Shown: positions 18,180-43,059 of the stretch, in pieces
Layout of the letters: every line of letters begins with the position of its first letter
Position numbering within the stretch: the stretch's first letter is position 1
From: Octopus vulgaris
Lineage: Eukaryota
Direction of reading: 5' to 3'
DNA length: 64,000 bases
Assembly: GCA_951406725.2 (NCBI GenBank)
Contig: OX597815.1
Location: 64,852,001-64,916,000, forward strand
Translations under genes and position numbers: made by a program
Notes under the pieces: generated by a model
The model's database searches: none
Seen by the model: the letters and a program-made list of their open reading frames with translations, nothing else
Told to the model about the DNA's origin: nothing

Positions 18180-18185
18180 TTTATT
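18180..18185 (-). terminator. Poly(A) signal of exon 4b
   Basis: AATAAA about 50 nt after the stop, GT-rich downstream element, conserved with the 4a copy. Confidence 0.6.
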
Positions 18186-18237
18186 GGCGATTTACTATAA
18201 ATTGCAAAAACAGTTGATGGAAAAATAGTGCTCAGAG

Positions 18238-18386
18238 TTAGCCGTGGTGATGTTTGAAAAGCCCACCTAGTATTTTAGCTAAATGTGATTGGTTCCAGAC
18301 ATTGTAATCAGCCAGATGATCATGGAAGCACGTCGCTGCTGCTTTATCACACATACAAGTAGCTTGTTGGCATTCATTATTATTCA
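18238..18386 (-). CDS. Duplicated sPLA2 terminal exon 4b (candidate alternative last exon, or orphan duplicate)
   Basis: Same acceptor context and phase as 4a. Encodes (L)NNNECQQATCMCDKAAATCFHDHLADYNVWNQSHLAKILGGLFKHHHG*; four Cys and Asp99 kept. No exon 2/3 copies were seen between 18.4 and 29.6 kb. Confidence 0.75.
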
Positions 18387-21300
18387 CTAGAAAAGAGAGA
18401 AGAAAAAGAAAACAAAACAGATTAAATATACTTAATTGTATTCGTTTTAAAATATTCTTGATGTGAAAATGTGCGTCGAACCTGATATTGATTATTATGG
18501 GAAGGTCATGCATCAATAAAAACACACGTACTGATTATATGTCACTTCAGTTTTATTACCGAACAGTGAAATATTTAACCATTTGATCAATTGATTCATC
18601 AGTTAGTCTGCCAAAATCCTTACGTAACAGTTTGGGATCTTACCAATGATTGTGTCCTTCAATCTTCTCTTTCTCCTCAGCAATTTATTGCATGTTTACT
18701 GATCATCTCACTGGTCTTGTGGTAAGATCAAAATCTGTAACGAAAGGACTTTCACAAACTTATCGATTAACCAATTGATTAATTATCTAATTGATTGGTA
18801 ATAAAACTGTAGTGAAGCATAACCAGTACATGTGATTTTACTGGCAGTATGTCCTACCCAAAATACGTTCTTCGTATTTATTGTTTCATTTGTTTCAGTC
18901 GTTGGACTAGGGCCATGCTGGAGCACTGCCTATAAAAGTTGAGCTAAACAAATTGACCCAACACATTCTTTTTAAGTCTTGTGATTGTTCCATCGGATGC
19001 TTGTGTCAAAATGGTATGTTACGGAGACATACACACACCAACAACGATTTTCGAGCGGTGTGAAGACAAGTACAAGAGCTGTACTCTCTCTCTCTCTTTC
19101 TCTCTCTCTCTCTCTCTCTCTCTCTCTCTCTCTCTCTCTCTCTCTCTCTCTCTCACACACACACACACATACATACACTCACTCACTCACTCACTCACAC
19201 ACGAGCAAGTGTGCGTATAAATAGTCTTTCATTCTTTTAAACGTTTTAGTTATTTGACTGCAGCCATGCTGGAACACCGACTTACAAGATATTTTAGTGG
19301 AAGAAATAGACCCCAGGATTTATTCTTTGTAAGCCTAGTACTTATTCTATCGGTCTCTTTTGCTGAACCGCTAAGTTACGGGGAACATTAACACACCAAT
19401 ATGGGTTGTCGAGTGATGGTTGGGGGACAAACACAGATGAAAGATACTCAAAAATATATATAAGCAGGTCCTGCTTTGTTATATATTTTATATCTTGCAG
19501 AATGGCTAAATATACAATATACAAGTTATTACACTACTCATTTATGATGTTTGATTAGAAACAAAAAAAAATTCTCCTCTTCTAAACAAAGCAGAAACCA
19601 TCCTACTCACATAAAAAAAAAAACAAGATAACGTCCTGTTTTTATCTTTTTTCTTTTTTTTTTTTTTTTGTCTGGAAGAGTTCGGTTAAACGAACGAAAG
19701 CATTAATAATTATCCAAATTTCTGGCTGCCTCCTTTTTCTCAATTCACCGCGAGAAAAGTTCACTGTCATCAATTCACAGCAGAAAAACTTCCCCTGTCA
19801 TCAATTCACCATTTTCTCTTTTTTATTTGTGCGTGTGTGTGTGTGTGTGTGTGTTTTTTGTTTTTGTTTTTGTTTTTTGTTTTTTGCTTTGATTTTTGTT
19901 TTTCAATAAAATAGTTTTCAACTATTAATTCTGAGATTCTATGGATGTATGTTCTTCGGTAAACTTTCTTCGTGGTGTACTTTCCTCGCGGTGAACTTTC
20001 TTCACGGTGCATTGATAGCGGTGAACTCTCCTGCAATAAATTAATGACAGCAAAATTACTAATAATCGCCATTCTCGCGCAGTTGCCAGACGAGCTCATT
20101 TCATGAACGTTGACCAATCAATTTGTACGTTAACGGATAGTATTCGGGGCCATATTCCTACTTTAACAACAATCTATTTTTATAACAACGATCAGAGTAG
20201 ATATAATTCGTGACACAACTCCATACACTACAACCTTTTGGAAATTTCATGTAGACCGGTAAAGTTTATCAAGTATATCTTAAAATAAATTTAAATTCTA
20301 ATTAATTCTATTTTATTCGCTGTGCATTTTCAACTTCATTTCTTCTATTCTTCCACTTGTTTTGATTAATAACAGTTTATATATATATATATATATATAT
20401 ATATATATATATATATATATATATATATATATATGCGACCGCGTGTGTACCGTTGGCGATTTTTTTTCCTCCGTCTTCCCTTCTCTGGATCTTTCCTTTT
20501 CCTATGTTTCTGACGAAGAGCTCCGCTCGAGACGTTAAACCCTCCTTCTTCCCTTCCTTCCTGAGCGTCCAATAATACTATATTTGTTCCACGTCCTCGC
20601 GTTGTTGTGTTTTCATGTTTGGATTAACTATATATATAAAATCGTCTTCACTTAAAGGAAAAGGGCTATACCATCCCAGTATTGGAGCTCCCGTTCGAAA
20701 AACAACCATTTCATTTCCACGTGACTCTTGGTAGTTTTCCGTGGTTGCAGTCTTGGTTGTTTTCCGTAGATTTTTTTTTTTTCCTGGTGAAGATCATGCG
20801 GGTGTTGATATCAAAATTTACCTTCTTGGCCCGACTGCCAATCGCCAACACCTCCTATGTCCATCTCCTATGTTCAGTTTGTATTTGCAATTGCGTACCA
20901 TGTTCTCCACTTTTTGCCTTCGCTAGCTTTCTTACAAAAAGGTCTAATGCCCTTAGTTTTGACTTTTTGGGAGGCAACCAGATAACACTGTCTCAAGTAT
21001 AACTGCCTGAAATATTAAGGACTTCTGGTATACTTGACTGAGGAAAGAAGGCCACGAATGACTCGTCTTTTTTTGCCTGTCCTTCTAATTGTTGTTTCTC
21101 CTGTCCACCTTTGTATCGTCTATCTGTCCGACTGTTTTATTGTCCTCTATTGCGATTTTGTTCCATTACATATATATATGTGTGTGTGTGTGTGTGTGTG
21201 TGTGTGTGTGTGTGTGTGTGTGTGTGTGTGTATGTATATGTATGTATGTATGTATGTATGTATGTATGTATGTATGTATGTATGTATATACATATGTACA

Positions 21301-40749: not shown

Positions 40750-41215
40750 GTTCTGCCTAAACAAGACCTCCAGCAATTTAACCGGTCCCCCTGTCCAGCG
40801 TCCCACGACGTTATTGGACGACATGGACCTGCCTCTCCAGGTTCTGAGCTGCAGGCCCACTGACTTTTCTTGTTTAATTTTTACTCCTGTCACCGCCTCG
40901 TATTCTTTTAGAGCAGTGCCGACCAGGTCTATGTGCCTGCTGTTTGACAGTACGATGGTAACGTCGTCTGCATATGCTGACACAGTTCTCCCATGTCCTA
41001 GTTCGCGCAGGATTCCTGTCAATGCCTCCAGTTTCCGTAGTAATGGCTCAAGAGCCAGTACATACAGAAGACGCGGGGGACACCTTTGGCGGACCAAACA
41101 CAGGATGTTGAATGGTTTCGATAGGTAACCATTCACCCGAACACCCGAGGACTGTGGCTGTAAATTGCAGCGATCCAACCACGGAAAACGGGACCGAAAC
41201 CGGCTGCCGTGAGAA
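40750..41215 (-). mobile_element. Tx1-clade RT fragment
   Basis: LLYVLALEPLL, AYADDVT, QEKSVGL. Confidence 0.8.
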
Positions 41216-42129
41216 CGGCTGTTAAGTATTGGTTGGTTTCCCCAATCATGCTTTACATCGTACAGAGAGAGAGGAAGGGTAAGTAAAAACAAGACAGGGG
41301 ATGAGAGCACATGCAAAGCTTAGTAGCAGGCAATGAGTAAATGAACGCTACACACACAGGGATAATGAAAGAATCATAGACACAGAAGGAGGAGGAGAAG
41401 GAGAGTGTATATACATAGATACATCATATATATATATATATATATATATATATATATATACATACATACATACATACATACATACATACATACATACATA
41501 CATACATACATACATACATACATACAACACACACACACACACACCAACACACGCATATATACATACATATATCCAACTCAAATCTAAGGCCTATCGTTTG
41601 GCATGATTTCTCCTCGGATTTTCACCTAGGGAGCTGCTAACTGACATTATCTTTTACGAAGGATTTTATTAATTCTTCGATCAAGTAAATACCAAACACA
41701 ATTATCTTTCACTCTGGACATTCCTTGATTTCTCGAAGTGGTAACTAATAATTTCCGCGATTGAAGATATTCTACATTACTATGATTTTTCTTTTTGTCT
41801 TTTTCTTTTTTTATCACTCTCTCTCTCTCTCTCTCTCTCTCTCTCTCTCTCTCTCTCCGATGACGGAATATATAGCTTACATGGAATTCTTTATCCAATA
41901 ACATATGAGCCACCTGCTTACCTATTCTAGAAATAACTATAATAAGAGAAATAATAGTGACAAGTAATCGAAAATGCATCACTGGCATCTAATTGTAAGG
42001 AGTCTGTTTTTGACATCACGACACTCGCTTGAATTTCGAATAAAGCAGCAAAGTAAAGAAATACATATGCTGAATGATTTACCTTATAAAATGTCGACAA
42101 ATTGAGGAAAATAGAAAAGACGAACTTAC

Positions 42130-42178
42130 CTGTAGTTAGGAAACAACCTAGAAAAAGCACTAAAAGATGCTGGAACAT
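42130..42178 (-). CDS. sPLA2 gene A, coding exon 1 (signal peptide MFQHLLVLFLGCFLTT)
   Basis: ATG at 42178, hydrophobic 16 codons + 1 nt, perfect donor CAG|gtaagt. An acceptor ttttacag precedes 42239, implying an upstream non-coding exon. Phase 1 joins in frame to exon 2. Confidence 0.8.
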
Positions 42179-43059
42179 TATGGCCACTGCTATGGTGATG
42201 CAATGAATATGTTAATCGGTGAAATCGAATGGTAAAGAACTGTAAAATACAAAAAATGGGATTAGTCAAACTATGAGCGTAAACAGATTAACACAGGCTT
42301 TCGTTAAATGAATCTTTCATGAAATGAAACTCTAAACACCACTAAACTCATTGGGTAAGAATGTTGCATTAACGAACATACTTTAAGCTTGGTAAACTGA
42401 AAAGGTCGTAAAGCAGTTAGTAAAATGTGATTTTCCCTTTTCTGTAATAATTCTTTGGTGAAAACATGCTCTAACTTTTTTTATACGAAATTTTTTCGGT
42501 AAAATGTGATTTTCTTTTTATTTCAAACGCTTTTTTAAAAAACATACGCTAATATTTTTACAGTTATACTTTTGTATGAAAACATTTTAGGTAAAAACGT
42601 ATCCCCAATTTCAAAAGGTCGTCTTTTATGGGGTACTGGGTAAGAATGTTTTGCAATTCAGGTGTTAATTTATTTTGGAGAAAAAAGTCGAATAATGAAT
42701 TTTTAAACAAGCTGCAAAGGATTAAAGTACATAGTGATTTCTCTACGCTTATACTAATCATGATCTTAGAAGAATAGAAGGATGTAACAATGTATATCTT
42801 AAGTTACTGATATAGTGTTTAATAACGGTTATAAATATACTTTCATTATATAAACGGTGAAGTTTATTTGTCTAAGTGCAGATAAAATGGTTTGTCGTTA
42901 ATAATACTTTATCATTAATAACGCATATATTATAGTGACAATAATCTTTTTAAACAAATTAAGGTTATTCTGATGGGTGGTAACTATAGCCCTTTATTAA
43001 CACACACATATATATATATATATATATATATATATATATATATATATATATATATATAT

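Follow-up and report, generated by a model that had tools for sequence, protein, structure and literature searches.

How many enzymes does a single secreted phospholipase A2 (sPLA2) gene produce when its last exon is present twice? The question is raised by a locus of Octopus vulgaris within a stretch of 64,000 nucleotides (contig OX597815.1 of assembly GCA_951406725.2, positions 64,852,001 to 64,916,000), which is referred to as the window and in which all coordinates are counted. The gene lies on the - strand and has four coding exons, the last of which exists as a proximal copy, exon 4a (coding part 29606-29748, 46 codons and TGA), and a distal copy, exon 4b (coding part 18238-18386, 48 codons and TAA, ending in HHHG). 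The GT donor of exon 3 (32607-32731) at position 32607 is the 5' splice site common to both endings. An initial annotation of this locus held that one gene may give rise to two isoforms; of the two joints that this entails, the one between exons 3 and 4b is seen, while the one between exons 3 and 4a follows from contig geometry only. The best explanation, which can be put forward with good confidence, is a single sPLA2 gene with a tandemly duplicated last exon, in which exon 3 is joined to 4b and, very likely, to 4a as well, and which would thereby encode two enzymes.

Splicing of exon 3 to exon 4b occurs. A protein search with 4b alone returns a single sequence, P0001 (155 residues), named 'basic phospholipase A2 Ts-G6D49-like isoform X1 [Octopus vulgaris]' in the database, which corresponds to exons 1-2-3-4b and is identical to 4b at residues 108-155. 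P0001 is an automatic, computed gene model. At the level of sequencing runs, 20 of the 24 listed for the 4a stretch carry part or all of it (11 studies), 14 of the 20 being guessed to be 'RNA?', none recorded as RNA and none bearing a tissue label. The contigs of four runs (X1, X5, X6 and X14, from four studies and with three organism labels) were aligned to positions 28200-35300 at 80% likeness, and the resulting tables, crowded by repeats at this likeness, list joints (15 of 240), loose ends (24 of 1865) and pieces (32 of 10,487). One X6 contig carries 29 loose letters before 32607 which match 18358-18386, the first 29 bases of 4b, without a mismatch, as opposed to six mismatches with the start of 4a. 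A further loose end of X6, situated behind 35167, consists of the end of exon 1 joined to exon 2, and therefore X6 contains spliced RNA. The 32607-to-18386 junction, one of the two that the initial annotation had named as points to check, is thus present in one contig. Contig depth is unable to rank the parts of the gene and was hence left unused (in X6 the exon 2-3 bins reach 3289 and 1170 and the 4a contig 18, and in X5 they are about equal). As a separate observation, exon 3 (32661-32672) and 4b (18347-18358) share an inverted match of 12 nt, which begins where the X6 loose end stops and may be due to chance.

The splice from exon 3 to exon 4a is very likely, judging from the geometry of the contigs. 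Five contigs, from all four runs, end their match exactly at 29748, the 4a acceptor. Since the first six nucleotides are the same in 4a and 4b, a fork built from 31-letter words should leave 30 - 6 = 24 spare letters on each branch. This number is found in X1 (record 2, length 260, of which 236 letters are aligned up to 29748) and twice in X14, a run of organism D, in one contig with nine differences (record 11) and one with 39 (record 10); the X5 contig (record 17) continues for 654 letters past 29748. Similarly, a 31-nt word common to both 3' regions predicts a break at 29513, as seen in X1 (29513/29542) and X6 (29513), and a 32-nt word predicts a start at 29495, as seen in X6. The X14 contig with 39 differences has three gap letters against 4a, whereas the 4b of the window differs from 4a by 41 mismatches and 21 gap letters. 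It is likely to represent a 4b orthologue that predates two deletions, the alternative being a third copy. No break interrupts the X5 contig of 4a at any of the fork sites, which is no proof that 4b is missing there, given that rare forms are dropped from contigs.

Several points weigh against the two-ended gene. The joint between exons 3 and 4b comes from one contig in one of the four runs together with a computed gene model, and 4b, lying outside the aligned stretch, is visible only as a loose end and as breaks in the graph. The joint from 32607 to 29748 does not occur among the joints listed (15 of 240), all of which come from repeats, and the spare 24 and 654 letters are known by their length only. 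The X6 contig that ends at 29748 (record 27) has no spare letters, which leaves one run of the four without the fork signature. The word size of these contigs is taken to be 31. The runs are 'RNA?' guesses of no stated tissue. A protein search with 4a, which is a weak search in that a near-identical isoform would hide in the cluster of P0001, returned no protein of the 4a form; a search with P0001 returned only itself among eight candidates, and its cluster has eight members. The label 'isoform X1' of P0001 suggests that other isoforms are annotated.

By its sequence, the pair of last exons is the product of a tandem duplication within one gene. The acceptors of 4a and 4b have an identical pyrimidine tract followed by TAG, both are in phase 1 and both frames are open, while the exons align by blastn at 80% over 139 nt (E 2e-29), well above chance. 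The copy of exon 4 that the initial annotation placed about 11 kb downstream on the same strand, with the same acceptor and phase, is thus borne out (18386-18238). The duplicated unit spans at least 2.1 kb in three blocks comprising the upstream intron (30117-30449 and 18512-18866, 77% identity), the exon with its near 3' region (29363-29858 and 18024-18499, 80%) and a distal block (28331-29097 and 16650-17413, 76%). Exon 4b lacks 16 nt that in 4a surround and hold the stop codon (18238-18249 compared with 29592-29611). Because the second copy of organism D has only three gap letters against 4a, this deletion may be recent. An abundant repeat at 29869-30095, which lies between the 4a acceptor and an inverted repeat upstream of it, has 12 other matches in the window and a depth above 30,000 in all four runs. 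It is missing from the 4b copy and therefore was likely inserted after the duplication. The notion that 4a and 4b are allelic haplotigs was ruled out by their divergence of 12-19% and their private insertions.

A second set of exons 1-3 that could feed 4b was not found in the window, whether by blastn at word size 7 (best non-self match E 0.018) or by tblastn with 150 homologues at E<=0.01. A profile run over 2654 six-frame pieces of the window matches strongly only exons 2, 3, 4a and 4b and a + strand exon near 7567, the next match having an E-value of 1.1. The absence of duplicated exons 1-3 had been noted initially from the letters alone, and a tBLASTn search of the kind proposed at the time agrees with it. 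Least probable among the rival explanations, and very unlikely, is that 4a and 4b come from separate genes or haplotypes, of which one would be an orphan or fed by exons missing from the assembly: the locus is a cluster of paralogues and the contig letters ahead of 4a are known by count only, but 4b is joined to this very exon 3, 4a lies between exon 3 and 4b, at a distance of 2.9 kb from the donor and without further upstream exons in the window, and the 24-letter signature on both branches of X14 requires a common upstream sequence.

The protein encoded is a recognisable sPLA2. P0001 matches the Pfam family PF00068 with 104 bits (cut-off 32.1, E 8e-30) and can be aligned to solved enzymes of groups I and II, with the residues for catalysis (His48 and Asp99 in homology numbering) and calcium binding (Asp49) among H70, D71, Y74 and D120 and with the Gly-rich loop as WCGFGG. 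The structural model of the 4b form (predicted local distance difference test score, pLDDT, 86) contains helices at 25-37, 62-80, 111-129 and 141-154 in a three-helix fold with a beta wing, and its top match by Foldseek is the human group IIE sPLA2 (E 1e-9). Exon 4 starts just ahead of the third helix and contributes C112, C117, C119, D120 and C126, which we take to be Cys91, Cys96, Cys98, Asp99 and Cys105 in homology numbering. All five are invariant in an alignment of 20 rows that includes 4a; the initial annotation had noted their retention in 4b, and the same holds for 4a. Its further statement that this segment supplies one partner of four of the five disulfides stands as a prediction from this numbering.

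After the leader there are ten cysteines (51, 66, 67, 73, 82, 106, 112, 117, 119 and 126). Group I sPLA2s proper have a Cys11-Cys77 bond and a Cys27-Cys126 bond, and those of group II have Cys50 bonded to a C-terminal cysteine. The octopus protein, with ten cysteines only and a lysine at position 27, falls outside group I; with a histidine at position 50 (HDHC) and no cysteine in either tail it falls outside group II as well. On these residues, it would work like the group I and II enzymes and belong to neither. The 4b form has 155 residues (17.706 kDa) and the predicted 4a form 153 (17.550 kDa), the first 107 residues being common to both. The two endings differ at 19 of 46 residues, with seven of the differences among the 21 residues of the helix core and 12 among the 25 of the tail; the count of 19 given initially was right, but its denominator of 47 includes the shared junction codon. 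Each ending contains an N-X-S sequon for N-glycosylation, shifted by three residues between the two. As the aspartate and the four cysteines are retained in either ending, activity as a calcium-dependent enzyme is predicted for both forms. The 19 differences and the moved sequon may tune surface binding or stability rather than the chemistry.

How the choice between the two endings is made may be approached from their 3' ends. Each copy has an AATAAA signal followed by a GT-rich run, at 29531-29526 in the 3' region of 4a (28331-29605) and at 18185-18180 in that of 4b (16650-18237), the former region including a longer tract covered by contigs beyond the signal and the latter the block homologous to 28331-29097. 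The signal and GT-rich element that had been ascribed to 4b are thus both in place. Contigs cannot reveal transcript ends, yet those of 4a pass position 29531 in all four runs, to 28667, 29097, 29137 and past 28200, overrunning the first AATAAA by 400-860 bases or more. Position 29531 is not the sole end of 4a transcripts; both signals are present, and independent polyadenylation at them, as proposed earlier, is only a candidate reading in view of this overrun. Other candidate poly(A) sites are those near 29089/29071 for 4a and at 17422/17405 for 4b. Ordinary use of alternative last exons, in which splicing and cleavage at the proximal exon compete with read-through to the distal one, would be the simplest model: splicing to 4a with cleavage of the transcript behind it would give the 153-residue form, and a polymerase that continues for 11 kb with 4a skipped would give the 155-residue form. 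Read-through of the first 4a signal would fit a proximal stop weak enough for 4b to be used as well. According to PMC6191721, a scanning model together with the arrangement of splice sites can account for the choice among 3' tandem exons without RNA pairing.

The initial annotation did not mention the fold-back elements upstream of the two acceptors, nor a third copy of the last exon on the + strand. These elements are long inverted repeats of 350-370 nt with terminal inverted repeats, and the window contains just two copies, one before 4a (30103-30449) and one before 4b (18493-18866), the latter 107 nt upstream of the acceptor. The first folds at -121.8 kcal/mol (z -10.8 against 40 shuffles) and the second at -133.2 kcal/mol (z -12.9 against 40 shuffles). 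They are likely an old miniature inverted-repeat transposable element (MITE) that was carried along with the duplication. Long double-stranded RNA of this kind could serve as a substrate for RNA editing.

Fold-back elements of this kind bring up the best surviving of the rival explanations, albeit an unlikely one, namely that competing RNA pairing steers the choice, with the 5' arm before 4a and the 3' arm before 4b looping out 4a and bringing exon 3 near 4b. The cross duplex reaches -121.6 kcal/mol and is comparable to the local hairpins (-109.4 and -127.4), with shuffled sequences at about -43 to -49, and the duplication of intronic stem-loops has been proposed to create just such competition (PMC9013439). 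Against this, the RNA strand bears no mark of selection, with G-U and A-C mismatches at 19 to 14 (p 0.49), and the opposite strand folds nearly as stably. The complementarity of the arms is 77-78% within copies and 72-75% across them, as expected of neutral decay, and folds of -120 or lower occur in 11 of the window's 168 tiles. Furthermore, the local hairpin is made 11 kb ahead of the competing arm, and 3' variable exons are stated in PMC6191721 to do often without pairing.

Somewhat less probable still is that both exons are spliced but that one ending alone is functional, the second form being a tolerated by-product of the duplication. The coding parts of 4a and 4b differ at 31 of 138 bases, and over the 46 codons nonsynonymous divergence (dN) is 0.24 and synonymous divergence (dS) 0.40, a dN/dS of about 0.6 whose error is wide with only 27 synonymous sites. 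There is no sign of positive selection in this comparison of 46 codons, in which dN is lower than dS. A ratio of about 0.58 on 27 synonymous sites is compatible with relaxed constraint, and the coding divergence of 19.4% equals that of the distal non-coding blocks (17.7% and 18.8%), the adjacent intron and the proximal untranslated region (UTR) standing at 13.6% and 11.8%. What speaks for two functional endings is that both frames have remained open and have kept the four cysteines, the aspartate and a phenylalanine despite a nucleotide divergence of about 20%, and that the two branches are also found in organism D.

A role of the switch in venom diversification, with both forms present in the posterior salivary gland and differing in their activity towards prey, is improbable. 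The initial annotation had framed the gene in this manner, and the framing is not supported: the runs carry no tissue, the salivary sPLA2 differs in length and mass, and dN lies below dS. In its favour, sPLA2 is counted among cephalopod salivary or venom proteins in PMC7693380 and in a preprint which mentions PLA2 in passing for squid and cuttlefish venom (bioRxiv 10.64898/2026.04.09.716377), and the coding parts have diverged further than the adjacent intron and the proximal UTR. According to PMC7693380, the salivary proteome of O. vulgaris contains one sPLA2 (protein group 434; 154 residues, 17.725 kDa), which shares genus, family, similar size and a signal peptide with the gene described here but differs from both its 155-residue, 17.706 kDa form and its 153-residue, 17.550 kDa form, and the paper regards sPLA2s as unproved as an important venom component in octopods. 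The salivary protein fits the neighbouring paralogue P0006 in length, though not in mass, so that none of the three candidates agrees with it in both. Neither the sequence of the salivary protein nor any of eight short peptides (six of P0001, P0006 and 4a, and a further two) turned up in the searched part of the supplement of PMC7693380. The name 'Ts-G6D49-like' is a label of similarity only, and a function in digestion or general secretion is no less likely than one in venom.

Equally doubtful is the most far-reaching version of the two-ended gene, a tissue-regulated switch of last exons that would exchange half of the active-site scaffold together with one partner in four of the five disulfides, would be conserved across octopus species and set by the competing arms of the fold-back elements, and would provide a salivary and a digestive enzyme. 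If true, it would mean that an sPLA2 has diversified by exon choice instead of by gene copies, and it would provide a natural test of the idea that splicing switches arise through hairpin duplication.

The remaining features complete the picture of the locus. Exon 1 (42130-42239, - strand) carries the start codon (ATG at 42178) and encodes a hydrophobic stretch that resembles a signal peptide. Exon 2 (35020-35164, - strand) encodes a KR site, the N-terminal helix and the calcium-loop motif YGKWCGFGG, and exon 3 the CCxxHDxCY helix with the catalytic histidine and the calcium-binding aspartate. An AG acceptor precedes exon 1 (42240 and upstream), and in X5 the contig exceeds the combined length of exons 1-3 by about 270 letters; therefore at least one further non-coding exon likely lies upstream. 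Within intron 1, the segments 38200-40700 and 40760-41200 resemble decayed retrotransposon coding sequence, with kin at 1175-2230 and 47165-50388 in a self-blast of the window. The + strand exon at 7567-7706 is 100% identical to residues 110-154 of P0006 (154 residues, 17.626 kDa, 49% identity to P0001) and thus belongs to a separate, convergent sPLA2 paralogue outside the switch. It is followed by an AATAAA at 7946, and P0006 is represented in the window by this last exon only.

The single gene with two last exons is moderately surprising, as tandem-duplicated terminal exons are a known gene design and the distal splice is already contained in the public gene model P0001. The arrangement is nonetheless unusual for the sPLA2 family because the swap falls within the catalytic domain. 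No description of it for an sPLA2 or for an octopus was found in the literature searched, outside which most subscription papers lie. The third helix is apparently exchangeable within one gene, which would offer two natural chimeras whose N-terminal halves are identical, suited to studies of helix and tail function, and at this locus the duplicated-hairpin model of exon choice could be tested directly. In surveys of transcriptomes or proteomes the isoforms may be counted either under a single gene or under two.

As a member of the group I/II/V/X-fold sPLA2s (PF00068), the octopus enzyme shares the fold, the His-Asp motif, the calcium loop and the ten core cysteines, and the solved structures nearest to it are those of human groups IIE and IIA and of viper group II. 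Duplication of whole genes is the usual way in which sPLA2s diversify. The venom PLA2 genes of the habu are a case in point, for which an Iso-Seq study reports no alternative splicing and a diversification through gene copies (PMC6832531). Closer parallels for the exon arrangement are the Drosophila genes pip, PGRP-LC and CG42235, in which terminal exons are tandemly duplicated and mutually exclusive, and constant 5' exons are combined with one of several homologous 3' cassettes that have their own 3' ends (PMC9013439, PMC6191721). Unlike these, the octopus gene has just two single-exon cassettes, and the exchange falls within one small disulfide-bonded domain, at a point between the catalytic histidine and its partner aspartate. 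In place of the docking site of PGRP-LC and its selectors, the octopus gene has a duplicated fold-back, for which cross-pairing is possible but neither a strand bias nor an excess of complementarity was found.

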